Assembly: GCA_965237485.1 (NCBI GenBank)
Contig: CBDEFQ010000003.1
Span: 6,554 to 70,553 of the forward strand
Direction: 5' to 3'
DNA length: 64,000 bases
Source: Candidatus Poriferihabitaceae bacterium
GTDB taxonomy: Bacteria; Pseudomonadota; Gammaproteobacteria; Arenicellales; Poriferihabitantaceae
Below, piece after piece: positions 3,604 through 63,253 of the stretch; positions within the stretch are counted from its first letter, which is position 1, and the number at the start of each line of letters is the position of its first letter. The notes under the pieces are model-generated. The model was given only the letters and a program-made list of their open reading frames with translations, did not search any database and was not told where the DNA came from. A program made the position numbers and the translations under genes.

Positions 3604-4997
3604 GAGTTATGCCTGAAAGTGGTGTATGGAGTAGTTGACTAAAAGCGGCGTATCGGGATGAGTTGAGTTTACAACAACTTAAACTTCCACAGACATACGC
3701 CACTATGAAACAGAATAAAATTATTTCCTTTGAAAAGCCAGAGCAAAGCATCGATCCGCTGCAAGAATTGATTCGCAATGGCGCTAGGCAACTCATTCAA
3801 ACCGCGGTCGAGAGTGAGTTATCTGAACTGCTGTATCGCAATTGTGACAAAGTCTCAGATTCAGGACACGCTGGTGTCGTTCGTAACGGCTATTTGCCAG
3901 AACGTGAACTGCAAACCGGGATCGGCCCAGTCAAAGTACGTATCCCCAAGGTGCGCTCCCGCACTGGAGTACCGATCACCTTTCGGTCTGCTTTAGTGCC
4001 GCCGTATGTGCGTAAAACGAGAACACTAGAAGCGGCCTTGCCTTGGCTGTATCTCAAGGGTGTCAGCACTGGAGAAATGGGGGATGCACTGAGCGTGCTA
4101 GTGGGTCAATCAGCGACTGGGTTATCATCAAGCACAGTGAGTAAGCTCAAAGCAACGTGGTCTCAGGAGTACAAGGATTGGAATAGAGAAGGTTTAGATC
4201 GAGATCGATGGGTTTATCTATGGGCGGACGGGATACACAGCGGCCTGCGCGGCGATGAGGGCCGGCTCTGTGCCTTAGTTGTCATCGGAGTGAATGAGCG
4301 CGGTCACAAGAAATTACTGGCGATTGAAGACGGTGAGCGAGAGTCTACGCAGAGTTGGCGAGAGGTGTTGTTGGCACTCAAGGAGCGAGGCCTGAATCAA
4401 CCAGAGCTGGGCATCGGTGATGGTGCTTTAGGCTTTTGGAATGCCCTGGAAGAAGTCTATCCTGGCACTAAACATCAACGGTGCCGGGTGCATAAAACGG
4501 CCAACGTGCTGAACAAGCTGCCTAAATCGGTGCAGCCCAAAGCAAAAGCAGCTCTGCATAACATTTGGCAGGAAGAAACCAAAGAAGCGGCGCAAAGCAC
4601 CTATCAATTATTCATTAAAACCTGTCAAGACAAGTATCCAAAAGCCACGCAGTGCTTGGAAAAAGATCGCGAAGAGTTAATGACGTTCTACTCGTTCCCT
4701 GCCAAGCACTGGATGAGCATAGGTACTACGAATCCAATTGAATCAACATTCGCGACTATCCGACACCGTACCAAACGATGCAAGGGATGTCTTAGCCGTG
4801 ATGGCATGTTAAGTATGATGTTCAAGCTGGGTCAGTGCGCAGAGAAAAAGTGGAACCGAATACGCGGGTTCGCCTATCTAGCAAAAGTGATTCAAGGGGT
4901 TCCATTTAAAGATGGAATAGAGCAAACTAATGACTACTCAGATCAAACCGAGGCCGCTTGAAGAAAATGCCTCATACACCAGATTCGGGCATAACTC
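3604..4997 (+). mobile_element. IS256-family element (IS256-a), copy 1, 1394 bp
   Basis: IRs GAGTTATGCCTGAAAGTGGTGTATG / revcomp GAGTTATGCCCGAATCTGGTGTATG. 9-bp direct repeat TATGTATCA at 3595-3603 and 4998-5006. It lies 153 bp downstream of tRNA-Leu. Confidence 0.9.
3663..4961 (+). CDS. IS256-family (Mutator-type) transposase
   Basis: 432-aa ORF; the true start is probably MKQNK at 3705. It carries family-typical blocks LYLKGVSTGEM, YLWADGI and QRCxVHKTANVLNKLPK. Confidence 0.9.
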   Translation: MSLQQLKLPQTYATMKQNKIISFEKPEQSIDPLQELIRNGARQLIQTAVESELSELLYRNCDKVSDSGHAGVVRNGYLPERELQTGIGPVKVRIPKVRSRTGVPITFRSALVPPYVRKTRTLEAALPWLYLKGVSTGEMGDALSVLVGQSATGLSSSTVSKLKATWSQEYKDWNREGLDRDRWVYLWADGIHSGLRGDEGRLCALVVIGVNERGHKKLLAIEDGERESTQSWREVLLALKERGLNQPELGIGDGALGFWNALEEVYPGTKHQRCRVHKTANVLNKLPKSVQPKAKAALHNIWQEETKEAAQSTYQLFIKTCQDKYPKATQCLEKDREELMTFYSFPAKHWMSIGTTNPIESTFATIRHRTKRCKGCLSRDGMLSMMFKLGQCAEKKWNRIRGFAYLAKVIQGVPFKDGIEQTNDYSDQTEAA

Positions 4998-11706: not shown

Positions 11707-12249
11707 TTATGAGGTGATCACGATATCCCGCAATTGCGGTGCAGCGGCGTCCTTTTCAGAGATAATCGGGTCGTCAACTGGCCATTGAACGCCGATATCT
11801 GGATCATTCCAAGAAATGCCCGCATCATCTTCTGCCTTGTATGCTGTGGTGCATTTGTAGGCAATTTCAGCCACGTCACTCAGCGTAGCAAAGCCGTGAG
11901 CAAAGCCGGGGGGCACGTACAACTGTATACGATTTTCATCACTCAGCTCGATCCCAAACCACTGCCCACGGGTAGTCGAGTCTGGGCGAATATCTACCGC
12001 CACATCATATATTACACCGCGTAGAGCGCGCACCAGCTTTCCTTGCCATTGCGGATATTGGTAATGCAGGCCCCGTATAACTCCTTTGGTTGACCGAGAG
12101 TGATTGTCCTGCACAAAATCACCGGGCAAACCGACCGACTCAAAGCGATATTTATTATAGGTTTCCATAAAAAACCCGCGTTCATCTTCAAATATGCGAT
12201 TTTTTACAATCACAACACCTGCAAGCGGTGTTTTGGTAATTTCGATCAA
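11707..12249 (-). CDS. rfbC: dTDP-4-dehydrorhamnose 3,5-epimerase
   Basis: 180 aa with the RmlC cupin motifs RGLHYQ and GFAHGF. Confidence 0.92.
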   Translation of the reverse strand: MIEITKTPLAGVVIVKNRIFEDERGFFMETYNKYRFESVGLPGDFVQDNHSRSTKGVIRGLHYQYPQWQGKLVRALRGVIYDVAVDIRPDSTTRGQWFGIELSDENRIQLYVPPGFAHGFATLSDVAEIAYKCTTAYKAEDDAGISWNDPDIGVQWPVDDPIISEKDAAAPQLRDIVITS

Positions 12250-12262
12250 TTGGAATTGCGAG

Positions 12263-12523
12263 TGTAGTGTATTAAATAGATCGTATGTATCAGCGAGACA
12301 AGAAACCGCCAGATACTAGGCGCGTTTCGCTGTGAATGGCCAGTCCTTTGCAAGAAATGCAACGACGTAGATGGCGGTTTCTTGTCTCGCCCGCTGGGAG
12401 CCCTCCAAATGACCCAATACTGCATTACAGTCCTTGTTAAGGGAACACCATTCACTGCGGACTGTGCCTTGTCTTGGATCATTTTGGGGGCTCTGATATA
12501 TACGATCTATTTAATACACTACA
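12263..12523 (+). repeat. Unclassified TIR-bounded structured element A (261 bp)
   Basis: 33-bp terminal inverted repeat, 31/33 matching (TGTAGTGTATTAAATAGATCGTATGTATCAGCG). Internal perfect 18-bp stem at 12293-12310 / 12373-12390. A second long stem AGCCCTCCAAATGA / TCATTTTGGGGGCT. It shares two collinear sequence blocks with element B. Confidence 0.6.
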
Positions 12524-12525
12524 TT

Positions 12526-12797
12526 AGTACTCTTTCAAAGTAATATTGCCTAATTCAGCGTCAACGCGCTGTTTCACAGCAAGACGTATTACGCAATGAA
12601 TGGTCATTCCCTTCATAAGCGATACAACGCGGCTGCGGGACAGCGCGTTGTTGGTGCCCTTTGGGTGAGCCTGTCCGCGCCCCCCCTGGGCTGCGTTGCC
12701 GCTTTTGCAAAGGGAGCGACCATTTCCTGCAAGCGACGCCTTGCCAGGCACGCGGACAGACTCACTGAATTAAGCAATATCACTTTGAAAGAGTACT
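12526..12797 (-). repeat. Unclassified TIR-bounded structured element B (about 270 bp), homolog of A in opposite orientation
   Basis: 35-bp TIR, 32/35 matching (AGTACTCTTTCAAAGTAATATTGCCTAATTCAGCG). Internal stems CAACGCGCTGT/ACAGCGCGTTG and CTGTCCGCG/CGCGGACAG. If bounded at 12527-12796 it is flanked by TA on both sides. It overlaps the dnaJ stop codon. Confidence 0.6.
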
Positions 12798-13920
12798 AGG
12801 TAACAAAATCATCAAAGAACGATTTTATCTTATCTTTCCACCCACTGCTTTGCGGACTATGGCGTTTCCCGCCTTTATCTAAGCTTTTTTGTAGTTGATC
12901 GAGCAATTCTTTCTGCTCAGTGGTGAGATTAATTGGAGTCTCTGTGTTAACCCTAATATACAAATCCCCAACCTGTGAAGAACGCACATTTTTTACCCCT
13001 TTGCCGCGTAGCCTAAACACCTTTGCTGATTGGGTTCCAGCAGGCACCTTAATATTTGCGCGGCCCGTTAAAGTGGGCACTTCAAGTTCTCCGCCCGCCG
13101 CCATCACGGCAAAGCTAACCGGCATTACGCAATGCAAATTATCACCGTCACGCTCAAATATTTCATGTTCTAGCAAATGTACTTGAACGTATAAATCACC
13201 GGGCACTACACCGGCGCCACCCCCTTCGCCTTCGCCGCTCAAACGTACTTGATCACCTTCGTCCACACCGGCAGGGATTTTAACTTTGAGGGTCTTCTCG
13301 GTGCGAACGTGCCCTTGGCCGCTGCATTCATCACATGGGTCTTTTATCTGTTTTCCAGAACCCTGGCATTGTGGGCACGCCTGTTGAATGGAGGAAAAGC
13401 CCTGTTGCATCCGCACTTGGCCTTGTCCAGCACAGGTTTGGCAGGTGACAGGAGACGAACCTTTTTTAGCGCCGCTGCCATCGCAAGTGCCGCAAGCTGT
13501 ATTGCGCGGTACGCGAATTTTCTTCTCAATGCCCGCGACCGCCTCTTCCAAAGTGAGCTTAACGTGAATCCGTAGATCTGAACCTCGGGCCTGTCGACGA
13601 CCACCCTGACGTGCGCCGCCAAATATATCGCCGAACATATCGCCAAAAATATCGCCGAAACCAGTACCCGCATCACCCATTCCAGCTGACGGATTAACTC
13701 CGGCATGACCGAATTGGTCGTAAGCCGCTTTCTTGTCAGCATCGCTTAATACCACGTAGGCTTCTTGCACTTCCTTAAATTGTGCCTCTGTATCCGGTTT
13801 ATCTTGATTGCGGTCAGGATGGTATTTCATCGCCATCTTGCGATAGGCCTTTTTTATTTCGGGTCCTGTAGCCGTTTTACTGGCACCCAGTACTTCGTAG
13901 TAATCTCGCTTTGACATCAA
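12796..13920 (-). CDS. dnaJ: Molecular chaperone DnaJ
   Basis: 374 aa with a J domain (HPDRNQ), a G/F-rich region and four CxxCxGxG zinc-finger repeats. Confidence 0.97.
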
Positions 13921-26200: not shown

Positions 26201-26447
26201 CGTTAGCGTAGTGCTGTCGAATCAACCTTAGTCAATAACTTCGTAACCTTCTGAAAAAGTCACTCCAGCTAGGCTTCTCTACCGGTTCTTCTGCCATTCC
26301 TGGGGTTTCCGCTAAACGGCCTCCGCTTCTTCAGCTATTTCGACTTCTTCAATAACTTTCGCGTCAACAATTACTATCTCTTCTTCAAAACTAGCGGTAA
26401 AGGAAAACAGGCCGGAACCTATCCATATTCCAACATAATGATTCCTT

Positions 26448-27650
26448 GAGAGCGCAGCGTAACTCACGATTTTAGTTTGATATTTTCGAAGCACTCATTT
26501 TTTGAGCTATATTTGCCCAGTTTCGCGTATTCGATCATCATTTAGTCACTATTTTATCAATTCGAGCACCTAAGCCATATTAAAGGCACAACTATCCAGC
26601 ATAGTGCCAATCAGGCAAGCCATACAAGCTTAAGAACTTAGCACCTTTACGGATATTCGCTGCCATCGCCGCTAGGCCGTAAACAGTCTGGTTCTTCGCT
26701 AGCCCCATGAACCGAGTGCGAGCTAAACCATAATGCTGCTTGTAAGTCGCAAAGAGCCGTTCGCCACCTGCTCGCGTTACCGCAATAACTGCATTACGGG
26801 TACGGTCTGCATCTGACAACGGATTACCTCGATAGCCCTTGCGTTGAACCTGATCATCAATTCCAAGTTGCTCCAGTTTATCTCGCGTCTCCTCAGAACT
26901 ATACGCCGCATCAGCATATAGGGCAGTCTCATCGCCCAACAGCAATTCATCGCGCAGTTGGCTGTCATGAACATGCCCTGGCGTCACATTCTGGTGCTGA
27001 ACAAACCCATCCTCATCAACTCCCGTATGCACTGAGTAGCCATAGGTAGACTTCTTTCGACCTCGGCTGTCATTTTTGACATGCCAGCTCGCTTCAGGGT
27101 CTCGCTTAGGCGTCCCGTCTTTGCCGTTACCATTTCCAGAACGAGCCGCTTCTATAGGTGTTGCATCTATAATGTTGATGCGCCCCTTGCTCATAATAAC
27201 GTTCTTCGCTTCAAGTTGACGATTGATCTCACCTAGCAAGCGGTCCCACAGTTCGTGCTCCATTAACTGGTTACGAAAGCGCCCAAGGGTCGAAGCTTCA
27301 GGTACATCGCCGCCTAACTCAAAGCGGCAAAACTTACGAAACAATAAATCTCTAAATAAGCACTGTGCTAACTCCCTATCCGACAGTTCATACCAAATTC
27401 CCAGCATCAAGCTGCGGAACAAACTAAGTAATGGATAACTAGGGCGGCCAGTAGTGCCAGCATAAATAGATGAAAGCAGTGTCTCTATTTCGCTCCAATC
27501 TAATAGTGCTTCTGTATCATCAAGACTATGCAGAATTGGATGATCCAAATCTGATCTTGATACTAATAAATCTCGTTGGGTGGCGAATGGTTTTTGCATG
27601 CCTAATTTTAACAAATTATGTAGATACTCGATGAGTTATGCTGCACTCTC
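26448..27650 (-). mobile_element. IS5-family element (IS5-a), copy A, 1203 bp
   Basis: IRs GAGAGTGCAGCATAACTCATCGAG / GAGAGCGCAGCGTAACTCACGATT. Direct repeat TCCTT at 26443-26447 and 27651-27655. Two further copies lie at 44334-45536 and 56031-57233. Confidence 0.9.
26592..27614 (-). CDS. IS5-family transposase
   Basis: 340 aa with an InsH-like N-terminal region (LSLFRSLMLGIWYELSDRELA) and a DDE core (IIDATPIEA, YADAAYSS). Confidence 0.9.
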   Translation of the reverse strand: MLKLGMQKPFATQRDLLVSRSDLDHPILHSLDDTEALLDWSEIETLLSSIYAGTTGRPSYPLLSLFRSLMLGIWYELSDRELAQCLFRDLLFRKFCRFELGGDVPEASTLGRFRNQLMEHELWDRLLGEINRQLEAKNVIMSKGRINIIDATPIEAARSGNGNGKDGTPKRDPEASWHVKNDSRGRKKSTYGYSVHTGVDEDGFVQHQNVTPGHVHDSQLRDELLLGDETALYADAAYSSEETRDKLEQLGIDDQVQRKGYRGNPLSDADRTRNAVIAVTRAGGERLFATYKQHYGLARTRFMGLAKNQTVYGLAAMAANIRKGAKFLSLYGLPDWHYAG

Positions 27651-34840: not shown

Positions 34841-36630
34841 TTGAGTAAGCTACCCTCTATTCCCGACATTCCTGAACAAGAACAAACCCCCGCAGTAAAA
34901 ATGTTGCGGGTGCTAGTGGAGCAGCTGTTGGTGCGAGTTCAACAACAGGACGAAGAAATAGCATTGCTTAAAGATGAAATCAATATCCTTAAGGGGCAGA
35001 AGAGGCGGCCTACTTTTAAGGGCGGTAATATGGATAAGAAAACAGAGCCAAAACGTTCATCTTCTAGCGACAAACCTAAGCAGCGAGCTGGGTCGAACAA
35101 GGCAAAGAAAACACCAAGGCTGTCAATTGACCTAAATCTGGTTATTGAACCAGCGAAGTCCGTGCCCGAAGGTTCTCGCTTTAAAGGCTATCGGGATTTT
35201 GTAGTGCAAGATTTGCTTATCAAGGTTCATACCACCCGCTATCGTTTAGCGCATTGGGTAACGCCAGACAATAAAAAGCTCAAAGGCCAGTTACCGACAT
35301 CCGTGGCAGGGCGACATTATGGGCCTCGTCTGGTCAGTTATATTCTCTATCAATATCATCATTGTCAAACCACGCAACCACTCTTGTTGGAACAGTTGCG
35401 AGAGTGGGGAATTGATATTTCTTCGGGACAAATTAACCCAATACTGATCAGCACTAAAGAGCCCTTTCATGCTGAGAAAGAGGCGTTACTAAGCGTTGCT
35501 CTGAGCGCATCGTCTTACGTGACCGTGGACGATAGTGGTGCTCGCCATCAGGGCAAAAATGGCGATGTAACGCACATTGGTAATGACTTGTTTGCGTGGT
35601 TTAAAAGTACTCAATCAAAAAGTCGAATTAACTTCCTACCGCTATTAAGGGCTGGCAATACGGATTATCGTTTGAGTCAAAGTGCGTTGAATTATAGGCA
35701 ACAACATGGATTGCCAAAGCAAGCCTTAGCCGCTGTAACTGAGCACCGGGAACGCCGTATTGCCAACGAGGATGACTGGCTTGAAATGCTCGATAGCCTG
35801 TTGATCATTAAGGCACGTCACCGACGTATCACCACCGAAGGGGCATTACTTGGTAGTATTTTGCATCATGGTCTGTGTGATGACATCGTTGTCGTCAGTG
35901 ATGATGCAGGGCAATTTAACATTTTGGCTCATGCCTTGTGTTGGATACACACCGAGCACTTAATCCATAAGTTGATACCGCTGAACGAGGGACACCGGCA
36001 GGGCATGGCTAAAATACGCGACCAAGTCTGGTGCTTTTATCGGGCGTTAAAGAGTATAAAACCCCGCCTTGCGAGAACCAACGTAAAATACTTGAGCAGC
36101 GTTTCGATGAAATCTTCACTCAACAGACATGCTACCAAACATTAAATCAGACGCTCAAACGAATCCATGCGAATAAAGCAGAATGACTGTTGGTGCTAGA
36201 TCGACCAGATATTCCGTTACACACCAATGGCAGTGAAACAGACATTCGCGATTACGTGAAAAAACGAAAAGTGAGTGGCTCCACCCGCAGCGATGCTGGC
36301 CAGCAGTGTCGGGACACGTTTGCCAGTTTGAAAAAGACCTGCCGAAAACTGGATATATCGTTCTGGCACTACCTGACCCATCGACTTGGTATCGGTGAGC
36401 AACATATTGATCCTCTGCCAGATATCATTATCCTAGATAAATCAGTTAAAACACGAAAGTCCATGCAAGCTCTTGATGCACCTAGCAAAATCAAAAAAAA
36501 CCTTATCACCAATAAGGTGACCGCGACTTTTTTGATTTCACTATGCACTTCAATTGCTTACATGTCTTTTCCGCGTTTAACTGATTTATCTAGGATTATG
36601 GAACGCGCCAGCTTTGCCACGGGTTATTGA
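34841..36630 (+). pseudogene. IS66-family transposase, inactivated
   Basis: Motifs VTVDDSGARHQGKNG, SDDAGQFNILAHALCWIHTE and PLHTNGSETDIRDYVKKRKVSG are present. There is a frameshift near 36060, an in-frame TGA near 36184 and a MITE at 36432-36594. Confidence 0.75.
36432..36594 (+). mobile_element. MITE copy 1 (163 bp)
   Basis: TIR CCTAGATAAATCAGTTAAA. 5-bp duplication ATTAT at 36427-36431 and 36595-36599. Confidence 0.9.
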
Positions 36631-37199
36631 GAAGTTACCGATGCAGCTTTCAAAATAAAGCTATTTTGCTCCTACTTAGCTATGAATAAAGTAACATCTA
36701 ATTTAATAACAACATAATTGGCGCAATAGGAATTTTTGAAGCCGTTGGATTGGAAATAAAAGACATTTGCATATTGCTGTAGTTATTGTTGCCAGGAAAA
36801 ATAAACAAAGCCCCTTCGGTTAAAGTCATCGGATTTCCGGTTGCCTTAGTTGGATAGTGATTTTCCGACTTAATGTCGCCATTACATTCGTTGCAAATCA
36901 TCTCCAACTTCCAGTTAGTGGTACCCTCCGGCACTCCTAGAGTGTATGTCCAACTCGTAGAGCCCGCTTGGGGATAAATATAATGGGTGTAACTATCCAA
37001 ACTTAAAAAATAAGTTGAACTAGCCCTTAATACAACTTGCTCATTGCCACTAGCGGAAAAGTCAGATGGAAATTTAATCGCCCCAGAAAAAACATCTGCT
37101 GTCTCGAGCTGTGAAGTGGACCCCATGATTAGGACAGGTTGAAGGCCAAAATAAGGAGTTATTTTCTGTTTTATAATTGTTCAAAACGAGGAACAGAAA

Positions 37200-37481
37200 A
37201 TGAGTAAAAAGCGTAGAAACCATGCCCCACCATTCAAAGCCAAAGTTGCTCTTGCAGCAATCAAAGGTGATGAAACATTAAGCAATCTTGCTAGTCGTTA
37301 TGACATCAATGCAAATCTTATCGTCAAGTGGAAGAAACAATTGCTCGATAGCTCAGCTGAAGTCTTTGCATCAGGCACAGGCTTATCTCCAAACCGAGAA
37401 TCAGAGATTAAATCATTACAGGCAAAGATCGGTGAAATCACCATGGGAAACGATTTTTTATCAAAAGCGCTCGGTCGTTAA
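37200..37481 (+). CDS. IS3-family transposase OrfA
   Basis: 93 aa, near-identical to ORF 1193-1474. Confidence 0.85.
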   Translation: MSKKRRNHAPPFKAKVALAAIKGDETLSNLASRYDINANLIVKWKKQLLDSSAEVFASGTGLSPNRESEIKSLQAKIGEITMGNDFLSKALGR

Positions 37482-37501
37482 ACAGACCTGAGCGCAAAAC
37501 T

Positions 37502-38326
37502 ATGATTAATAAAAGCAATAAACTATCGTTAGTTCGTCAGTGTAAATTGTTGAAGATTCATCGTTCCCATGTTTATTACAAAACCTCACCTGCTAATGAG
37601 GATGACTTGGAACTGATGCATCTGATTGATCGCATTCACCTCAATCGGCCCTTTCTTGGCAGTAGACGCATTCGTGATGTGTTGCAAGATGTAGGCCACC
37701 GAGTTGACCGTAAACATGTGCGACGCTTAATGCGTAAGATGGGCATTAAAGCCATCTATCCTAGGCCTAACACCAGCAAGAAGAAGGCGGGGCACAAGAT
37801 TTATCCTTATCTGCTAGGTGGGTTGGCCATCAATCAACCCAATCAAGCTTGGTGTACCGATATAACTTATATCCCGATGCCTAAGGGCTTTGCTTATCTT
37901 ACCGTTGTGATGGATTGGTATTCTCGTAAAGTGCTGTCATGGCGGCTTAGCAACAGCATGGATAGCGCATTCTGCGTAGATGCTTTGGAAGAGGCACTGC
38001 ATTACTACGGCAAGCCTGATATCTTTAACAGCGATCAAGGTGCGCAATTTACCAGTGAGGCGTTTACCGGTGTACTCAAAGACAATGGTATTCGCATCAG
38101 CATGGATGGCAAAGGTGCTTGGCGTGACAATGTATTTGTTGAGCGCTTATGGCGCAGCGTGAAATATGAGGAAGTCTATTTGCAAGCCTACCAATCGATG
38201 AAAGAGGCAAAAGACGGCATTGGCTCCTGGATAAACTATTACAACCAAGAGCGTAAACATCAAACATTGGGCATGGTCCCTGACATGATGTATGATCCAT
38301 GTCGCGGCCTGAAATTGGCTGCTTAA
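37502..38326 (+). CDS. IS3-family transposase OrfB
   Basis: 274 aa, identical to ORF 1495-2319. Confidence 0.9.
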   Translation: MINKSNKLSLVRQCKLLKIHRSHVYYKTSPANEDDLELMHLIDRIHLNRPFLGSRRIRDVLQDVGHRVDRKHVRRLMRKMGIKAIYPRPNTSKKKAGHKIYPYLLGGLAINQPNQAWCTDITYIPMPKGFAYLTVVMDWYSRKVLSWRLSNSMDSAFCVDALEEALHYYGKPDIFNSDQGAQFTSEAFTGVLKDNGIRISMDGKGAWRDNVFVERLWRSVKYEEVYLQAYQSMKEAKDGIGSWINYYNQERKHQTLGMVPDMMYDPCRGLKLAA

Positions 38327-38378
38327 TCAGCTGAAAATAACTCCTAAGCCATCTGTCCTAAAAAGCGGGTCCACTTCT

Positions 38379-38614
38379 CCGTTGTGATGGATTGGTATTC
38401 TCGTAAAGTGCTGTCATGGCGGCTTAGCAACAGCATGGATAGCGCATTCTGCGTAGATGCTTTGGAAGAGGCACTGCATTACTACGGCAAGCCTGATATC
38501 TTTAACAGCGATCAAGGTGCGCAATTTACCAGTGAGGCGTTTACCGGTGTACTCAAAGACAATGGTATTCGCATCAGCATGGATGGCAAAGGTGCTTGGC
38601 GTGACAATGTATTT
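38379..38614 (+). mobile_element. Internal fragment of IS3-a orfB (236 bp) abutting copy 2
   Basis: CCGTTGTGATGGATTGGTATTC...GACAATGTATTT matches 1893-2128 of copy 1. Neither fragment end is an IS terminus. Confidence 0.85.
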
Positions 38615-44333: not shown

Positions 44334-45536
44334 GAGAGTGCAGCATAACTCATCGAGTATCTACATAATTTGTTAAAATTAGGCATGCAAAAACCATTCG
44401 CCACCCAACGAGATTTATTAGTATCAAGATCAGATTTGGATCATCCAATTCTGCATAGTCTTGATGATACAGAAGTGCTATTAGATTGGAGCGAAATAGA
44501 GACACTGCTTTCATCTATTTATGCTGGCACTACTGGCCGCCCTAGTTATCCATTACTTAGTTTGTTCCGCAGCTTGATGCTGGGAATTTGGTATGAACTG
44601 TCGGATAGGGAGTTAGCACAGTGCTTATTTAGAGATTTATTGTTTCGTAAGTTTTGCCGCTTTGAGTTAGGCGGCGATGTACCTGAAGCTTCGACCCTTG
44701 GGCGCTTTCGTAACCAGTTAATGGAGCACGAACTGTGGGATCGCTTGCTAGGTGAGATCAATCGTCAACTTGAAGCGAAGAACATTATTATGAGCAAGGG
44801 GCGCATCAACATTATAGATGCAACACCTATAGAAGCGGCTCGTTCTGGAAATGGTAACGGCAAAGACGGGACGCCTAAGCGAGACCCTGAAGCGAGCTGG
44901 CATGTCAAAAATGACAGCCGAGGTCGAAAGAAGTCTACCTATGGCTACTCAGTGCATACGGGAGTTGATGAGGATGGGTTTGTTCAGCGCCAGAATGTGA
45001 CGCCAGGGCATGTTCATGACAGCCAACTGCGCGATGAATTGCTGTTGGGCGATGAGACTGCCCTATATGCTGATGCGGCGTATAGTTCTGAGGAGACGCG
45101 AGATAAACTGGAGCAACTTGGAATTGATGATCAGGTTCAACGCAAGGGCTATCGAGGTAATCCGTTGTCAGATGCAGACCGTACCCGTAATGCAGTTATT
45201 GCGGTAACGCGAGCAGGTGGCGAACGGCTCTTTGCGACTTACAAGCAGCATTATGGTTTAGCTCGCACTCGGTTCATGGGGCTAGCGAAGAACCAGACTG
45301 TTTACGGCCTAGCGGCGATGGCAGCGAATATCCGTAAAGGTGCTAAGTTCTTAAGCTTGTATGGCTTGCCTGATTGGCACTATGCTGGATAGTTGTGCCT
45401 TTAATATGGCTTAGGTGCTCGAATTGATAAAATAGTGACTAAATGATGATCGAATACGCGAAACTGGGCAAATATAGCTCAAAAAATGAGTGCTTCGAAA
45501 ATATCAAACTAAAATCGTGAGTTACGCTGCGCTCTC
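44334..45536 (+). mobile_element. IS5-a, copy B, nested in the right arm of IS21-b
   Basis: Same IRs as copy A. Direct repeat ATTGT at 44329-44333 and 45537-45541. Confidence 0.9.
44370..45392 (+). CDS. IS5-family transposase
   Basis: 340 aa, differing from ORF 26592-27614 at a few residues. Confidence 0.9.
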   Translation: MLKLGMQKPFATQRDLLVSRSDLDHPILHSLDDTEVLLDWSEIETLLSSIYAGTTGRPSYPLLSLFRSLMLGIWYELSDRELAQCLFRDLLFRKFCRFELGGDVPEASTLGRFRNQLMEHELWDRLLGEINRQLEAKNIIMSKGRINIIDATPIEAARSGNGNGKDGTPKRDPEASWHVKNDSRGRKKSTYGYSVHTGVDEDGFVQRQNVTPGHVHDSQLRDELLLGDETALYADAAYSSEETRDKLEQLGIDDQVQRKGYRGNPLSDADRTRNAVIAVTRAGGERLFATYKQHYGLARTRFMGLAKNQTVYGLAAMAANIRKGAKFLSLYGLPDWHYAG

Positions 45537-45605
45537 ATTGTATTTAATTGTTCAGTTTTACTCGCTGACAGGTGTCCAGTTTTAAACGCTGATTGACACT
45601 TTAAA

Positions 45606-45767
45606 CCTAGATAAATCAGTTAAACGCGGAAAAGACATGTAAGCAATTGAAGTGCATAGTGAAATCAAAAAAGTCGCGGTCACCTTATTGGTGATAAGTT
45701 TTTTTTGATTTTGCTAGGTGCATCAAGAGCTTGCATGGACTTTCGTGTTTTAACTGATTTATCTAGG
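45606..45767 (-). mobile_element. MITE copy 2 (162 bp)
   Basis: 5-bp duplication TTAAA at 45601-45605 and 45768-45772. Opposite orientation to copies 1 and 3. Confidence 0.9.
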
Positions 45768-45801
45768 TTAAAGGGGTCTGACCCCTTTTGCTACTTTTGC
45801 T

Positions 45802-49328: not shown

Positions 49329-50320
49329 TAAAACGTGTCATTGACATCAGCCAGCAATCTTGTCTTTCGCTCACTAACAAACAGTTGTTGGTTAAGCAAG
49401 AGCATGAGGTGACCGCCAAGATTCCTGTCGAAGATGTCGGTGTGTTAATTTTGCAACACCCAGCCATTGTTATCACCCAAGCCGTAATAATCGCATTACA
49501 ACAAAATAACGCCGCCGTTTTGTTTTGTGATGCACGACATTTGCCTTACTCAATTACATTACCTATTTCTGATGGGCACTCTCTGCACAGTAAGATTTTA
49601 CAACAACAAATTCAGGTCAGCTCTCCCACTAAAAAGAGGCTTTGGCAACAAGTGGTGAAGCATAAGATTAGCGCACAGGTTAACACCCTAAAAAGGACGA
49701 TATCAATCGAAGATAAACCCTTATTACGGCTGGCCCAGAATGTGAAATCCGGCGACCCCGAAAACTATGAAGCGCAAGCCGCCCGACGTTATTGGCAACT
49801 ATTATTCGGCAAACAATTCCGCCGGAATACCGAAGCCGAAGGGATAAATTCGTTGCTCAATTATGGCTATGCAATCGTGCGCGGCATTATTGCAAGAGCA
49901 ATTGCCGGTGCTGGTTTGCACCCAGCCATTGGCATTCATCATCGCAATCAATATAACGGTTTAAATCTGGCCGATGACTTGATGGAGCCTTTTCGGCCAT
50001 GGATGGATAAACTGGTATATGACCTGGCCAAACAAGGACAAACGGAAATAAACCAGAAAACAAAGAAAGTCTTACTGGACATACCAAGTAAGAGTGTCCG
50101 ATGGCATCGCGAGGAAATGCCATTAATGGTTGCCAGTCATTATCTACTGGCTGAATTCAAGCGATCTCTATTTTCTTCTGACAAACCAAAATTGAGTTAT
50201 CCGACGTCAATTGAAGAGATGCCTGCATTAAACCTAGATAAATCAGTTAAACACGAAAGTCCATGCAAGCTCTTGATGCACCTAGCAAAATCAAAAAAAA
50301 CCTTATCACCAATAAGGTGA
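49325..50320 (+). CDS. cas1: CRISPR-associated endonuclease Cas1 (type II), C-terminus rewritten by a MITE
   Basis: The GTG start overlaps the cas9 stop (GTGA). Motifs NYGYAIVRG and NLADDLMEPFRP are present. From 50233 the ORF runs into MITE sequence. The native end would be ...MPALNVDT with its stop at 50410-50412. Confidence 0.9.
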   Translation: MIKRVIDISQQSCLSLTNKQLLVKQEHEVTAKIPVEDVGVLILQHPAIVITQAVIIALQQNNAAVLFCDARHLPYSITLPISDGHSLHSKILQQQIQVSSPTKKRLWQQVVKHKISAQVNTLKRTISIEDKPLLRLAQNVKSGDPENYEAQAARRYWQLLFGKQFRRNTEAEGINSLLNYGYAIVRGIIARAIAGAGLHPAIGIHHRNQYNGLNLADDLMEPFRPWMDKLVYDLAKQGQTEINQKTKKVLLDIPSKSVRWHREEMPLMVASHYLLAEFKRSLFSSDKPKLSYPTSIEEMPALNLDKSVKHESPCKLLMHLAKSKKTLSPIR

Positions 50321-50394
50321 CCGCGACTTTTTTGATTTCACTATGCACTTCAATTGCTTACATGTCTTTTCCGCGTTTAACTGATTTATCTAGG
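50233..50394 (+). mobile_element. MITE copy 3 (162 bp) at the cas1/cas2 junction
   Basis: 5-bp duplication TTAAA at 50228-50232 and 50395-50399. It differs from copy 1 by one A. Confidence 0.9.
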
Positions 50395-50415
50395 TTAAAC
50401 GTAGACACCTGATAA

Positions 50416-50796: not shown

Positions 50797-51616
50797 AGTA
50801 TAACCGACCAAGGCCTATCCGCAAATCACAACATAACGTCATTACATTGCAGTAATGCATTCAGTATAACCGACCAAGGCCTATCCGCAAATCACAACAG
50901 CGTTATTACCTTTGCAAGTTTTGGTTCAGTATAACCGACCAAGGCCTATCCGCAAATCACAACAGTACATCTTTTATGTCGCTGTAGAGGCTAGTATAAC
51001 CGACCAAGGCCTATCCGCAAATCACAACATACTCGATCATCGGTGATGTGGCCGAATCAGTATAACCGACCAAGGCCTATCCGCAAATCACAACAAGTAA
51101 TCTGACGTTAGTCGTCGTTCCAGAAGTATAACCGACCAAGGCCTATCCGCAAATCACAACTGAAGTCGTAGTGGTATTCGGCGGGTTTAAAGTATAACCG
51201 ACCAAGGCCTATCCGCAAATCACAACTAGTTCTCTAGTACCTGTTTTGTATTGGCTAGTATAACCGACCAAGGCCTATCCGCAAATCACAACTACAGAAG
51301 GCGGAACAACTGATGAAACAACAGTATAACCGACCAAGGCCTATCCGCAAATCACAACTAAGGTCCGTGTAGCGTTTATTCGCTTCATAGTATAACCGAC
51401 CAAGGCCTATCCGCAAATCACAACTAGATTGAACTAATCTAATCAATAACTTCCAGTATAACCGACCAAGGCCTATCCGCAAATCACAACAGTTATTATT
51501 ACTATAGTCGCTTAGAGGGTAGTATAACCGACCAAGGCCTATCCGCAAATCACAACTATTTAGATTATGTTGAGAGGTTAAAAATGAGTATAACCGACCA
51601 AGGCCTATCCGCAAAT
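50797..51616 (-). CRISPR. CRISPR array: 12 full 36-bp repeats plus one 30-bp truncated repeat, 12 spacers of 29-30 bp
   Basis: Plus-strand repeat AGTATAACCGACCAAGGCCTATCCGCAAATCACAAC. Inferred functional orientation GTTGTGATTTGCGGATAGGCCTTGGTCGGTTATACT. Repeat starts: 50797, 50863, 50928, 50993, 51059, 51125, 51191, 51257, 51323, 51389, 51455, 51521 and 51587 (truncated at 51616). Confidence 0.97.
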
Positions 51617-53032
51617 AGCTTTAAAGGGGTCTGACAGTCTTGTCCAACATGAAATGATACTGAGCGAAGGGACTGATTCTAATCGGAAATGATACCGAAC
51701 TAATCTAATTTCTGTTCATGATGGTGAATGAATACCATTATGAATGACCACCATATAGATACCCTTGATAAGGCGCGCTTGTTTCTACAAGGCACTGATG
51801 AAATCGATCTGGCAATCGACGGTAAACGCAATCGCTATGATTTCATCAAACGCACCTTAATGCGTTTCAAATACAGCAAACTGGGTCGAGCCGATAAGGG
51901 TCTTGTGCTGCGTTATATCACACGCATCAGCGGTTACTGCATATTTTTACCAACCGTGGCCAGTTAATTTTACGTAGCGAGGCCACCTAATTTTACCAAC
52001 CGTGGCCACTGATTTTTATCGAAGCGCGGACACTTTTTCGCTTCCGTAAAATTCCTCCACAGCCTTCTTGCGGTTAACACTATAACCGTTAACCTGCCGT
52101 TCTTTTATTTGTATTGGAACAGCTATGAAACCCAAGAAGGTCACTATGTTAAAACTCAAAGACATTCTGCGCTTGCACTATGAGGCGCAACTATCCTCCC
52201 GTAAAATCGCGCTCAGCTTAAACCTGTCACGCAGCGCCGTATCCAAATATCTCGTCAGAGCAACAAATGCCCAATTAAGCTGGCCCCTGCCAGCAGGCAT
52301 GGATGAACAACAGCTGCAGGCGATATTAAAGCCGCCCAAATGCAGAGGCCCTGCCACTGCTTTATTGTGTGAGCCAGACTTTGCACAAATATCAGTTGAA
52401 CGGTCTCGTAAAGGGATGACTCGCCAATTACTGTGGGAAGAATACGCCGAGCATCATCCAGTCAACCATTACAGCTATTCTCGCTTCACGGTGTTGTTCG
52501 GTCAGTGGCGCAAGAAGCAAAGAATCTCGATGCGCCAGACTCATATTGCTGGAGATAAACTGTTTGTTGATTATGCTGGTTTAACCTTAGGTATTATTGA
52601 TGCTCGTACGGGTGAAGCACGCCCTGCCCAAGTATTCGTTTCAGTGCTCGGAGTCAGTTCCTATACCTACGCCGAGGCCACATGGACACAGAGCTTGCCT
52701 GACTGGATAGGCTCACACGTTCGCGCCTTTGAATTTTATGGCGGTGTTACTCAAACAGTGGTGCCCGATAACCTCAAGAGTGCTGTTTCTAAAGCCGGTC
52801 GTTATGACCCCGAACTCAACCCCAGCTATGCACAATTAGCCGCCTATTACGGTGTGGCGGTGATGCCTGCCAGACCTTATAAGCCTAAGGATAAATCTAA
52901 AGCCGAGGTGGGCGTACAGATTGTCGAACGCTGGATCATGATGCGGCTGCGCAAGCTGCAATTGTTTAGTTTGGATGAGGCTAATCAAGCTATTCGAGGA
53001 TTGCTAGATGATCTAAACAATCGCCCCTTTAA

Positions 53033-53195
53033 CCTAGATAAATCAGTTAAACGCGGAAAAGACATGTAAGCAATTGAAGTGCATAGTGAAATCAAAAAAG
53101 TCGCGGTCACCTTATTGGTGATAAGGTTTTTTTTGATTTTGCCAGGTGCATCAAGAGCTTGCATGGACTTTCGTGTTTTAACTGATTTATCTAGG
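53033..53195 (-). mobile_element. MITE copy 4 (163 bp)
   Basis: 5-bp duplication TTTAA at 53028-53032 and 53196-53200. Confidence 0.9.
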
Positions 53196-53543
53196 TTTAA
53201 ACAACGCCCGGGTTCTCGCCGCTCACAGTTTGAATCAATTGATAAGCCTGCTCTTAAATCATTGCCTGGCACGCCTTATAGCTATCGCCATGTAGTAAAA
53301 GCACGGGCGCACATCGATTATCACGTTAGCTATGATGGACATCATTACTCGGTTCCCTATCAATTGCGCGGCGAGGCAGTAATGTTACACGTCGGCGAGC
53401 ACTGTATTGATGTGTTCTACCAAGGCAAGGGTGTCGCGCAACATCCGCGAGCAATGGGCCAAGGCGGACACACAACCCATGTCGCTCACATGCCTAAAGC
53501 TCATGCTAAACACCAAGAGTGGACGCCTGATCGGTTTCTTAAT

Positions 53544-53706
53544 CCTAGATAAATCAGTTAAACGCGGAAAAGACATGTAAGCAATTGAAGTGCATAGTGA
53601 AATCAAAAAAGTCGCGGTCACCTTATTGGTAATAAGGTTTTTTTTGATTTTGCTAGGTGCATCAAGAGCTTGCATGGACTTTCGTGTTTTAACTGATTTA
53701 TCTAGG
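53544..53706 (-). mobile_element. MITE copy 5 (163 bp)
   Basis: 5-bp duplication TTAAT at 53539-53543 and 53707-53711. Confidence 0.9.
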
Positions 53707-54045
53707 TTAATTGGGCAAGTCAGGTCGGTGCGGCGACAGAGCGCGTGGTGCGTTATCAATTAGAAAATCGCCCCCATCCAGAACATGGTTATCGTGCTTG
53801 TTTGGGCATTCTTAACCTTGCCAAGAAATACGGCAAGACGCGTTTAGAGAATGCCTGTTTACGCGCAGAGAAGATTGGCGGCCTGCATTACAAACACCTT
53901 GCATCAATACTACAAACCCGTCTCGACAAGCTACCTACCGAACCCGATAAGCAACAGACTTTGCCAAGCACCCATGCCAATGTGCGCGGAGCCGATTACT
54001 ACCATTAACCCAAACCATTTCATCTATAACCAACAGGAAAATACT

Positions 54046-56030: not shown

Positions 56031-57233
56031 GAGAGTGCAGCATAACTCATCGAGTATCTACATAATTTGTTAAAATTAGGCATGCAAAAACCATTCGCCA
56101 CCCAACGAGATTTATTAGTATCAAGATCAGATTTGGATCATCCAATTCTGCATGGTCTTGATGATACAGAAGCACTATTAGATTGGAGCGAAATAGAGAC
56201 ACTGCTTTCATCTATTTATGCTGGCACTACTGGCCGCCCTAGTTATCCATTACTTAGTTTGTTCCGCAGCTTGATGCTGGGAATTTGGTATGAACTGTCG
56301 GATAGGGAGTTAGCACAGTGCTTATTTAGAGATTTATTGTTTCGTAAGTTTTGCCGCTTTGAGTTAGGCGGCGATGTACCTGAAGCTTCGACCCTTGGGC
56401 GCTTTCGTAACCAGTTAATGGAGCACGAACTGTGGGATCGCTTGCTAGGTGAGATCAATCGTCAACTTGAAGCGAAGAACATTATTATGAGCAAGGGGCG
56501 CATCAACATTATAGATGCAACACCTATAGAAGCGGCTCGTTCTGGAAATGGTAACGGCAAAGATGGGACGCCTAAGCGAGACCCTGAAGCGAGCTGGCAT
56601 GTCAAAAATGACAGCCGAGGTCGAAAGAAGTCTACCTATGGCTACTCAGTGCATACGGGAGTTGATGAGGATGGGTTTGTTCAGCGCCAGAATGTGACGC
56701 CAGGGCATGTTCATGACAGCCAACTGCGCGATGAATTGCTGTTGGGCGATGAGACTGCCCTATATGCTGATGCGGCGTATAGTTCTGAGGAGACGCGAGA
56801 TAAACTGGAGCAACTTGGAATTGATGATCAGGTTCAACGCAAGGGCTATCGAGGTAATCCGTTGTCAGATGCAGACCGTACCCGTAATGCAGTTATTGCG
56901 GTAACGCGAGCAGGTGGCGAACGGCTCTTTGCGACTTACAAGCAGCATTATGGTTTAGCTCGCACTCGGTTCATGGGGCTAGCGAAGAACCAGACTGTTT
57001 ACGGCCTAGCGGCGATGGCAGCGAATATCCGTAAAGGTGCTAAGTTCTTAAGCTTGTATGGCTTGCCTGATTGGCACTATGCTGGATAGTTGTGCCTTTA
57101 ATATGGCTTAGGTGCTCGAATTGATAAAATAGTGACTAAATGATGATCGAATACGCGAAACTGGGCAAATATAGCTCAAAAAATGAGTGCTTCGAAAATA
57201 TCAAACTAAAATCGTGAGTTACGCTGCGCTCTC
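56031..57233 (+). mobile_element. IS5-a, copy C
   Basis: Same IRs as the other copies. Direct repeat TATT at 56027-56030 and 57234-57237. Confidence 0.9.
56067..57089 (+). CDS. IS5-family transposase
   Basis: 340 aa, near-identical to the other two copies. Confidence 0.9.
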   Translation: MLKLGMQKPFATQRDLLVSRSDLDHPILHGLDDTEALLDWSEIETLLSSIYAGTTGRPSYPLLSLFRSLMLGIWYELSDRELAQCLFRDLLFRKFCRFELGGDVPEASTLGRFRNQLMEHELWDRLLGEINRQLEAKNIIMSKGRINIIDATPIEAARSGNGNGKDGTPKRDPEASWHVKNDSRGRKKSTYGYSVHTGVDEDGFVQRQNVTPGHVHDSQLRDELLLGDETALYADAAYSSEETRDKLEQLGIDDQVQRKGYRGNPLSDADRTRNAVIAVTRAGGERLFATYKQHYGLARTRFMGLAKNQTVYGLAAMAANIRKGAKFLSLYGLPDWHYAG

Positions 57234-58847
57234 TATTAGTAATTCAATACTCAAAATATAACTTCCTTTACGGTAGGGCTGAGTTCGAGTTATGCCTGAA
57301 AGTGGTGTATGGAGTAGTTGACTAAAAGCGGCGTATCGGGATGAGTTGAGTTTACAACAACTTAAACTTCCACAGACATACGCCACTATGAAACAGAATA
57401 AAATTATTTCCTTTGAAAAGCCAGAGCAAAGCATCGATCCGCTGCAAGAATTGATTCGCAATGGCGCTAGGCAACTCATTCAAACCGCGGTCGAGAGTGA
57501 GTTATCTGAACTGCTGTATCGCAATTGTGACAAAGTCTCAGATTCAGGACACGCTGGTGTCGTTCGTAACGGCTATTTGCCAGAACGTGAACTGCAAACC
57601 GGGATCGGCCCAGTCAAAGTACGTATCCCCAAGGTGCGCTCCCGCACTGGAGTACCGATCACCTTTCGGTCTGCTTTAGTGCCGCCGTATGTGCGTAAAA
57701 AGAAGTGGACCCGCTTTTTAGGACAGATGGCTTAGGAGTTATTTTCAGCTGATTAAGCAGCCAATTTCAGGCCGCGACATGGATCATACATCATGTCAGG
57801 CACCATGCCTAAGGTTTGATGTTTGCGTTCTTGGTTGTAATAGTTCATCCAATTGCCAATACCGTCTTTTGCTTCTTTCATCGATTGATAGGCTTGCAGA
57901 TAAACTTCCTCATATTTAACACTGCGCCATAAACGCTCAACGAACACATTGTCACGCCAAGCGCCTTTGCCGTCCATACTGATACGAATGTTATTAGCTT
58001 TGAGTACGCCCGTAACCGCCTCACTGGTAAATTGCGCGCCTTGATCGCTGTTAAAGATTTCAGGCTTGCCATAGTAATGCAGGGCCTCTTCCAGAACATC
58101 TACACTGCGCTATCCATACTGTTGCTAAGATGCCATGACAGCACTTTGCGAGAATACCAGTCCATCACAACAGTAAGGTAAGCAAAGCCCTTAGGCATCG
58201 GGATATACGTAATATCGGTAGCCCAAGCTTGATTGGGTCGATTAACTGCTAAACCACCTAGCAGGTAGGGATAAACCTTGTGCCCAGCCTTCTTCTTGCT
58301 GGTGTTAGGCCTAGGATAGATGGCTTTAATGCCCATCTTACGCATTAAACGCCGCACATGCTTACGGTCAACTCGGTGGCCTACATCTTGCAAGGCATCA
58401 CGAATACGCCTACTGCCAAGAAAGGGGCGATTGAGATGAATGCGATCTATCAGATGCATTAGTTCCAAGTCATCTTCATTAGTAGGCGTGGGTTTGTAAT
58501 AAACACTAGACCGATGAATATCCAACAGCTTGCACTGTCGAACTAACGATAGTTTATTGCTTTTATTAATCATTGCTTTGCGCTCGGGTTTGTTTATCGA
58601 CCGAGCACTTTTGACAAAAAATCATTTTCCATGGTGATCTCACCAATCTTTGCCTGTAACGATTTAATCTCTGATTCACGATCCGGAGCCAAGCCTGTGC
58701 CTGAAGCAAAGACATCAGATGAGCTATCGAGCAATTGTTTCTTCCACTTGACGATAAGGTTAGCAGCGACGTCATAACGACTAGCAAGATTGCTTAAGGT
58801 TTCATCTCCTTTGATAGCGGCAATTTTCAGGGTAGTTGCACATTTTC

Positions 58848-62815: not shown

Positions 62816-63253
62816 TGAATAAGCCTTACGTTTATGATGGTTTCCATTCTAGCAAGATTCGCACAAACTTCCAATAAGATTCCAATAAACTTCGCATCTT
62901 ATAGTGCATCCAAGGGCATGCCTTGGTCGAGATTGAGCGTCGAAACGCTCACGGCATCCAATCCGCGTAGGGTTGGTCATGATTAAACTGTGGCCAGTTT
63001 ACGGTATCCAAACGGCGGACGGTTGGTGCATGGTTCAGCCCAGATGGAGAGGTATATCTCCAAGGTCTGGTCGATGGGGTTTGGGGTAGCGCGAAGGCTC
63101 CCCAATGGTGATAGAACAACCACTTGTTCGCTGGTGCAGCACCCAACTCGATGTTGGTAATGCGCCACTAAGCTCTTGCCCGAGAATGATAATTCGAGGC
63201 TTAGAGCGTCCCCGCAGGATAGAACGGACATGGAATGTCCTTCTCAAGATAGG

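Follow-up and report, generated by a model that had tools for sequence, protein, structure and literature searches.

Paired structured elements between dnaJ and rmlC as probable members of an apparently undescribed, TA-duplicating MITE family of marine Gammaproteobacteria

Two structured elements, A and B, lie between dnaJ and rmlC in the window, by which is meant the whole 64-kb stretch of DNA that was analysed, and they are probably members, from different subfamilies, of one TA-duplicating MITE family whose structure is needed for propagation. The family is a MITE family by its size, its TIRs, the TA duplication, its presence or absence at a site, its dispersed copies and its lack of coding capacity. 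It is apparently an undescribed family, one of marine Gammaproteobacteria in which a Y-shaped fold is conserved rather than the sequences of the ends. Six copies of A that have conserved ends and lie at unrelated TA sites, together with empty dnaJ-rmlC sites in relatives, show that the elements are mobile DNA. The earlier note on this DNA had preferred a structured RNA to a MITE, and this preference is contradicted by the six A copies at TA sites, by the empty sites and by the absence of a strand bias. The coordinates of the elements, their parts and the neighbouring genes are collected in Table 1.

Table 1. Positions in the window of elements A and B, their parts, the flanking genes and the copies of the TA target
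Feature	Position	Strand	Basis or remark
rmlC (dTDP-4-dehydrorhamnose 3,5-epimerase)	11707-12249	-	546 nt downstream of dnaJ here
Degenerate third TA copy, adjoins the outer end of A	12260-12261	.	copy flank consensus, empty sites
Element A	12262-12524	+	complete family member, 263 bp
A terminal helix P1, 5' strand (TIR), AT-rich	12262-12293	+	inverted repeat
A arm 1 hairpin	12291-12392	+	arm covariance model 91.2 bits, fold, arm alignment
A dyad centre CCC-GCT-GGG	12390-12398	+	printed sequences
A arm 2 hairpin	12395-12496	-	arm covariance model 92.1 bits (- strand), arm alignment
A terminal helix P1, 3' strand	12493-12524	+	inverted repeat
TA common to A and B, middle target-site copy	12525-12526	.	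junction reconstruction
Element B	12527-12796	-	complete member, subfamily other than that of A, 270 bp
B arm 2 (as reverse complement), holds block 2 at 12592-12613	12555-12657	+	covariance model 81.5 bits
B dyad centre CCC-AAA-GGG	12657-12665	-	sequence, A/B alignment
B arm 1, holds block 1 at 12691-12725	12666-12768	-	covariance model 69.6 bits
TA copy adjoining dnaJ	12797-12798	.	ORF end versus empty sites
dnaJ	12796-13920	-	ORF; homologues have the DnaJ domains of Pfam; its stop-codon TA is the target

In the relatives L033-L037 the site is empty: there dnaJ ends in TAA, and rmlC starts with TTG after 6 nt. Exact matches to the RmlC and DnaJ proteins of the window are not on record. The best homologues of DnaJ have 86-88% identity, and the contigs that carry them are syntenic, with the order grpE-dnaK-dnaJ-rmlC-rmlD-helicase. 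When the window is read on the dnaJ strand the same junction is GTTACC TA [B: GTACTC...GAGTAC] TA [A: (A)TGTAGTG...CACTACAC] TC GCAATTCCAA TTG, and the present stop codon of dnaJ, TAG, is the complement of positions 12796-12798 and is made up of the duplicated TA and the terminal G of B. It had been proposed that B is bounded at 12527-12796 by TA on both sides and that it sits inside the dnaJ stop codon, and both the junction reconstruction and the change from TAA at the empty sites to TAG bear this out. The third copy of TA is now GA on the + strand and TC on the dnaJ strand. At the adjoining end of A, the last base is T where the subfamily consensus is C; on the dnaJ strand, where this base comes first, G has become A. 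The order TA-[B]-TA-[A]-T(C), taken with the empty sites, shows that the stop-codon TA was entered twice in succession and that TA was duplicated, but the junctions do not tell which of the two elements was inserted first. The first arrival went into the TA of the dnaJ stop codon and the second into one of the two TA copies that resulted, and the terminal G of the element rebuilt a TAG stop codon. A and B have pushed rmlC from 6 to 546 nt past dnaJ.

The same target is seen at other copies. The A-type copies have the consensus flanks TA-GTGTAGTG...CACTACAC-TA, and the flanks of the family copies are (C/T)TA-element-TA(G/A), which is a YTAR context and often CTAG. That TA and not a 4-bp sequence is duplicated is favoured by the non-palindromic contexts at L002 (TTAG/CTAG), L008 (TTAA/TTAG) and L017, and these three loci rule out a 4-bp duplication of CTAG or TTAA of the kind made by IS5-, IS701- and piggyBac-like elements. 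The copies at L002 and L008 are two of the six full-length copies of A described below. The TA flanks are imperfect at some loci, being TG at L004, L012 and L013 and CA at L017. The copy at L016 is adjoined by TA-GTGTAC-TA, a possible excision footprint.

Both elements are closed by long and nearly perfect terminal repeats, as the earlier note had described for the pair. The TIRs of A (12263-12293 and 12493-12523) are 31 nt long and 97% complementary and those of B (12525-12558 and 12765-12798) are 34 nt long and 94% complementary, and the terminal helices of A and B are given as 31-34 bp overall. The same note had called the two terminal repeats unrelated to each other. This is correct for most of their length, but the helices of A and B have in common the outermost TA, followed by GT..A.T, and the innermost CAG/CTG. 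The G+C content of P1 is 0.29 compared to 0.52 in the core. Scored against the family profile with nhmmer, A gives 198 bits and B gives 132.8 bits on the - strand, which is the family-forward strand of B and also the strand of dnaJ. The RNA minimum free energy of A is -136.1 kcal/mol, against -68.6 kcal/mol in dinucleotide shuffles (z = -13.5), and that of B is -151.5 kcal/mol, against -87.1 kcal/mol (z = -12.6), and for neither element was any of the 200 shuffles as good. In the fold of A the outer stem of arm 1 is the perfect 18-bp stem (12293-12310 and 12373-12390) that had already been noticed, its internal loop is AGGCG / GCAACG, and its apical motif, GTGAATGGCCAGTCCTTTGCAAG, is block 1 (12334-12367). 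Arm 2 of A is the homologue of arm 1 once it is reverse-complemented. In it lies block 2, AAGGGAAC-ACCATTCACTGCG (12439-12459 on the + strand), and no other block is as well conserved. The stems of B are 19 nt (84%) and 15 nt (93%) long. Blocks 1 and 2 are collinear between A on the + strand and B on the - strand, with 71 and 77 nt between the blocks and with 19 of 22 positions of block 2 matching across one indel; here the alignment of the two elements reproduces what had been read from the sequence.

Within an element, the homology of arm 1 with arm 2 in reverse complement extends over the entire arm, and the alignment is collinear. The order of parts is the same in both arms, namely outer stem, AGGCG, inner stem, GCAGTGAATGGnnnTTCCCTTnACAAG, inner stem, GCAACGnnG and outer stem, and a single motif underlies both block 1 and, reverse-complemented, block 2. 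The two arms are about 65% identical and each has its own local pairing. With a covariance model built for a single arm, both arms are recovered in every element and there are no other matches in 300 kb. Every element also matches the family HMM when it is reverse-complemented. The element is thus a pseudo-dyad, in which a unit of ~135 nt is followed by a CCC-NNN-GGG centre and by the same unit inverted, each unit being one strand of the 26-35-bp AT-rich terminal helix and a hairpin arm of ~100 nt. Two such inverted units give a three-way-junction, that is, a Y-shaped fold. The consensus centre of the A subfamily is CCC-GCA-GGG, which contains a C-GNA-G mini-hairpin, and C-GNA-G is known to form very stable mini-hairpins in DNA. 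Of the 27 listed elements with a centre, 19 have C-GNA-G there when the sequences are read by eye.

An alignment of 18 members was used to examine covariation, by RNAalifold and by counting pairs. RNAalifold predicts both arms from these members. The paired cells amount to 90.8%, compared to 35-41% in controls with the partners shifted by 1-3 columns, and double, that is compensatory, changes are present in 50 of 60 pairs, although the outcome would be identical if the structure were formed by DNA. By type, 903 cells are Watson-Crick, 77 are G.U and 33 are A.C. None of 500 shuffles reached the observed value on any of five measures, and in the 17-pair stem of arm 2 there is variation at every pair. 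The conserved fold is therefore real and its helices hold their position while their sequence changes, which is what the earlier note had seen in two elements and is now seen in 18. What is conserved in sequence across the subfamilies is the outermost few bases, the inner CAG/CTG, the AGGCG / GCAACG internal loop and the apical GTGAATGGnnnTCCCTT. A shared peptide had been considered and rejected before, and rightly so. Both A and B have an ORF that opens at an ATG in block 1 and closes ahead of block 2, but the peptides are unrelated, the stems covary regardless of the reading frame, and ORFs within the elements are not conserved. A translated search with the 78-aa ORF returned a single match of 63 aa, which is not placed on any contig.

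Relatives were gathered from genome and metagenome collections with an exact block-2 pattern, AAGGGAAN{1,2}ACCATTCANTGCG, and the scan returned 32 loci; since the pattern fixes 19 bases exactly, the conservation of block 2 among them is in part a matter of ascertainment. Five of these loci (L003, L005, L023, L025 and L027) are chance matches to the pattern in coding DNA and were discarded. The true relatives are 261-313 bp long, and there are in addition three shorter deletion derivatives and one truncated copy. The architecture of A and B is seen again at about 25 other loci. Six full-length copies of A, which are 90-93% identical and have the same ends, lie at unrelated TA sites of the MAG CBDBQB01, a Candidatus Poriferihabitaceae (Arenicellales) that has at least six A-type copies and one copy of another subfamily. 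About 20 further relatives, whose terminal helices are unrelated, come from marine gammaproteobacterial MAGs and metagenomes, and the other hosts are Lysobacterales, Thiotrichales, Cocleimonas and unclassified gammaproteobacterial MAGs as well as metagenomes. Across the members the TIRs are 26-35 bp long and 85-97% complementary. The mean pairwise identity of the terminal helices between subfamilies is only ~0.4, compared to the self-complementarity of 85-97% within an element, and what the subfamilies have in common is the outermost bases, TA followed by GTGTA.., GTAC.. or AGGAG.., and the innermost CAG/CTG. One further subfamily, at L002:1-285, was found by chance and is without the block-2 motif, which means that the family is wider than the pattern with which it was collected.

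In the window there are no copies beyond A and B by BLAST, nhmmer or the arm covariance model, and the viral and plasmid collections gave no matches. As the earlier note had supposed, no Rfam family corresponds to the elements; cmscan against Rfam gave no match at gathering thresholds and only chance-level matches at E <= 10. A description of the family was found neither in Rfam nor in the plasmid collection or the literature searched. The elements in a paper on MITEs of Thiomargarita (PMC4853749) differ from the A/B family. The insertions lie between genes, often directly at a stop codon on one side or the other, and one insertion splits an S41-peptidase-like gene. Their orientation with respect to the adjacent genes is mixed, and A and B themselves are opposite within one transcription unit. 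Promoter and terminator signals in the elements are at or below the background of shuffled sequences.

The copies of the A type give some indication of whom the structure serves. Among all seven of them there are 6 compensated double changes, some of which are in the terminal helix, whereas ~0.15 would be expected by chance as estimated from the stem substitutions per copy. There are also 17 uncompensated breaks in these copies, which fold with energies between -108 and -137 kcal/mol. This pattern of substitutions suggests that pairing is kept in the lineages that propagate and that copies, once inserted, decay. It would also point to a need of the element itself and not of the host for the structure. 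According to the earlier note, its reading would be refuted by many copies with conserved ends and variable interiors, as in an ordinary MITE family, by a lack of transcription and by a lack of covariation. What is found here goes half of the way, in that the six A copies do have conserved ends and support from covariation is present as well.

Whole elements do not prefer a strand, as 15 of 28 favour one strand and the mean difference is -0.3 kcal/mol, but the arms do. With RNA parameters arm 1 is more stable on the forward strand in 15 of 18 members and arm 2 is more stable on the reverse strand in 14 of 18, and with DNA parameters the trend is the same, in 16 of 18 and 12 of 18 members, respectively. 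Because the member sequences are related to one another, p-values for this strand preference are overstated. When the arms are read from the outside in, there are 40 G.U against 4 A.C in arm 1, and 36 against 7 in arm 2; this count leans towards the outside-in reading because the structure was derived in that orientation, while the energies are free of such a bias. Each arm thus folds better when it is read inward from its own end, and the preference is mirror-symmetric. Since the arms prefer opposite strands, no single transcript can serve both of them, but a single-stranded form that is symmetric with respect to the two ends can.

A and B are probably mobilised in trans, the enzyme being a DDE transposase that duplicates TA and is of the IS630/Tc1-mariner type. 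IS630 prefers CTAG and duplicates TA. In the 64-kb window and in ~240 kb of related loci there was no autonomous element with matching ends or arms, and no IS630-type transposase was noticed there in an unsystematic look at the ORFs of the window. The transposases noticed in the window resemble the IS5, IS3, IS256 and IS21 types when their sequences are judged by eye. The IS5-like element in the window was considered as the partner and rejected, since it differs both in its ends, GAGAGTGCAGC..., and in its duplication, which is non-specific and 5 bp long. Neither solo terminal repeats nor solo arms were found beside a transposase in the window and the related loci. The earlier note had proposed to check whether homologues are accompanied by a reverse transcriptase or nuclease gene. 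An all-against-all comparison of the ORFs at the 32 loci L001-L032 gave no companion gene, be it a reverse transcriptase, a nuclease or a transposase, and the only recurrent ORFs are pseudo-ORFs within the elements and syntenic genes. Transposition of the Tc1/mariner/IS630 kind, as far as it is known, uses double-stranded ends and needs no hairpins, so that the arms are left unexplained by this mechanism. A likely role for the hairpin arms is that the element needs them for propagation, in single-stranded form at each end and on the strand that runs 5' to 3' inward. We also put forward, as a tentative and rather doubtful extension, that the ends are recognised by their shape, with inward-strand hairpins of ~100 nt that carry fixed loop motifs and with a sequence-free panhandle of ~32 bp that joins the TA-flanked ends.

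Other explanations of the same data were weighed. The elements could be genes for a strand-specific structured ncRNA, in which case the Y-shaped fold is the product and mobility is secondary, and the terminal helix could be a processing stem at which RNase III frees a core of ~200 nt from a read-through transcript. RNase III can work on a helix as long as this one, of 26-35 bp, and an RNA would also be in keeping with the strong covariation, with the conserved unpaired blocks and with a U.G pair of arm 2 that 17 of 18 members have on the forward strand. A precedent is bcr1 of the Bacillus cereus group, a transcribed mobile repeat in which a double stem-loop is kept by compensatory changes (PMC3184786). 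However, bcr1 is ~155 bp long, makes a 5-bp duplication, belongs to Firmicutes and has been interpreted as a structure at the RNA level, whereas in the A/B family it is TA that is duplicated, the terminal helix is long, and the strand preference is mirror-symmetric, which speaks against a single RNA. An ncRNA is also difficult to reconcile with whole elements that have no strand asymmetry and arms that favour opposite strands, with the mixed orientation relative to flanking genes and the opposed A and B in one transcription unit, and with the lack of promoter or terminator signals and of an Rfam match. Moreover, the inverted homology of the arms makes their loop motifs complementary, and not identical, on any one transcript. 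We consider an ncRNA gene very unlikely.

It is rather unlikely, too, that the element is a palindrome moved as single-stranded DNA by an enzyme that recognises shape, whether REPIN/RAYT-like, another HUH enzyme or a recombinase that acts on folded DNA in the way integron integrases act on attC, with the apparent TA duplication being a shared cleavage or crossover dinucleotide. Such an enzyme would account for the conservation of structure but not of end sequence, for the mirror-symmetric strand preference, for the mostly C-GNA-G centre and for compensated changes even in recent copies, terminal helix included. The doublet of inverted hairpins is REPIN-like, since REPINs also consist of two inverted hairpin units that form a larger hairpin and also conserve structure more than sequence between families; but they are ~100 bp long, have no TIRs and no target duplication, and are linked to a single-copy RAYT, and none of this applies to the elements seen here. 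In the neighbourhood of the copies there is no gene for a RAYT, a HUH enzyme or a recombinase. There is TA on both sides of the elements and there are three TA copies around two elements, whereas REPINs and IS200/IS605 leave no target duplication, and the ends of IS200/IS605 are direct hairpins on one strand and not inverted ones. That the family is an ordinary MITE with functionless hairpins is unlikely as well. The palindromes would then be maintained by a mutational process, namely template switching or quasi-palindrome correction, or have been inherited from diverged ends of a parent IS, and the TIRs would differ only since each subfamily tracks its own transposase. Co-evolution of TIRs with a cognate transposase is indeed the standard account of subfamily-specific ends, and individual copies do decay and stems are almost purely Watson-Crick. 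What speaks against functionless hairpins is that all the stem positions turn over and yet 90.8% of the cells are paired and the loop motifs are fixed, that arms of only ~65% identity each keep their local pairing, and that the mirror-symmetric excess of G.U over A.C is not expected from undirected correction.

Compared to known MITEs, the A/B family resembles the Correia/NEMIS elements of Neisseria in being small and non-coding, in having TIRs and a TA duplication, in being mostly intergenic and co-transcribed, and in forming long hairpins, and in both cases no cognate transposase is known. Correia elements are simple hairpins of 100-155 bp with conserved 26-bp ends and an IHF site. The members of the A/B family, unlike these, are three-way junctions of ~265 bp with ends that vary between subfamilies and with covarying internal arms, they have no sequence similarity to Correia/NEMIS, and their hosts are marine Gammaproteobacteria. 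MITEs of the IS630/Tc1-mariner kind, such as RUP of Streptococcus pneumoniae and Stowaway of plants, are alike in the TA duplication, the CTAG-like context, the size and the absence of coding sequence. The difference is that their known members are recognised by TIR sequence and have no covarying subterminal hairpins, and for the A/B family no IS630-family partner or matching TIR was found.

The gap of 546 nt between dnaJ and rmlC is therefore to be read as two MITE insertions in series and not as a regulatory RNA locus, and as far as the host is concerned, A and B are probably no more than a structured spacer within the transcript of dnaK, dnaJ and rmlC. When MAGs of Arenicellales, Thiotrichales and related marine groups are annotated, the family should be masked or marked as a repeat. 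It is unusual for a mobile element to keep a three-way junction while its TIRs drift and its arms prefer strands in a mirror-symmetric manner. If recognition by shape were true, it would mean a single-stranded or cruciform three-way-junction route for a TA-duplicating element, and to our knowledge no pathway of this kind has been described for IS630/Tc1-mariner. If, on the other hand, the partner is an ordinary IS630-type transposase, the arms would imply an unrecognised requirement or a host-factor site at the ends. The family thus offers a testable case for the question of whether recognition as a folded single strand occurs among bacterial MITEs.

Several loci outside the window bear on where the Y-shaped elements, which duplicate TA, insert and on what they may leave behind. 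At L031:1-303, a locus matched by the block-2 pattern of the family, the element occupies the TA in the middle of a longer palindrome. Its flanks, ACGACTGTACTTAGCTAT and ATAACTAAGTACAGTCGT, form an inverted repeat, and this suggests that the element was inserted into a different palindromic repeat. At L010:2479-3959 a Y-shaped element (L010:3001-3267) lies between two ORFs, and as judged from their sequence these ORFs resemble the two halves, N-terminal and C-terminal, of a single S41-type peptidase, in which case the element would be an intragenic insertion. Directly 3' of the right TA of the element in L016 there is GTGTAC-TA (L016:2881-2890), which could be a footprint left when an element once in tandem with this one was excised, or could be due to chance; such a putative footprint, GTGTAC, would comprise terminal bases from both ends, enclosed by two TAs. 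The MAG that holds the A-type copies also contains another subfamily of the Y-shaped element, at L002:1-285, with the ends TTAACCCAGGTGACAAATACCCTGCATTCAG; this element keeps the arm 1 motif but has a different sequence in place of the arm 2 apical motif.

The mobile-element density of the window is unusually high (table below). A 1.2-kb insertion sequence with the ends GAGAGTGCAGCATAACTCA is present in three copies that are 99-100% identical; it encodes an IS5-like transposase of 340 aa and the duplications beside it are 5 bp and non-specific. The other repeated insertion sequences were assigned by eye from the sequence as having an IS3-type OrfB, an IS256-type transposase, and an IS21-type IstA. 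There is also a second MITE-like family of about 170 bp, unrelated to the Y-shaped elements, with five copies in the 64-kb window, the ends CCTAGATAAATCAGTTAAA...TTTAACTGATTTATCTAGG, a palindromic interior, and AT-rich 5-bp duplications at its flanks (TTTAA, ATTAA). Two copies of this family flank a CRISPR-like array in which a repeat recurs about 13 times with a period of 66 nt.

Repeated features of the window
Feature	Position in window	Repeat unit
IS5-like insertion sequence, 1.2 kb	26437-27650	
IS5-like insertion sequence, 1.2 kb	44334-45537	
IS5-like insertion sequence, 1.2 kb	56031-57244	
Repeated insertion-sequence segment	1105-2371 = 37112-38614	
Repeated insertion-sequence segments	3604-4961 and 57287-57586 / 60596-60895	
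Repeated insertion-sequence segment	41892-42638 = 63253-64000	
MITE-like family, ~170 bp	36419-36606	
MITE-like family, ~170 bp	45589-45782	
MITE-like family, ~170 bp	50224-50404	
MITE-like family, ~170 bp	53021-53207	
MITE-like family, ~170 bp	53532-53718	
CRISPR-like array	50797-51633	36 nt, AGTATAACCGACCAAGGCCTATCCGCAAATCACAAC

When window 12249-12262 was compared with L033 and L034, the contigs of syntenic relatives in which the dnaJ-rmlC site is empty, the start of rmlC in the relatives was found to be 6 nt past the dnaJ stop. This spacing suggests that dnaJ and rmlC are co-transcribed or translationally coupled in the relatives. In the window the gap between the two genes is 546 nt of very stable hairpins, and thus the expression of rmlC and rmlD in this genome may be altered.
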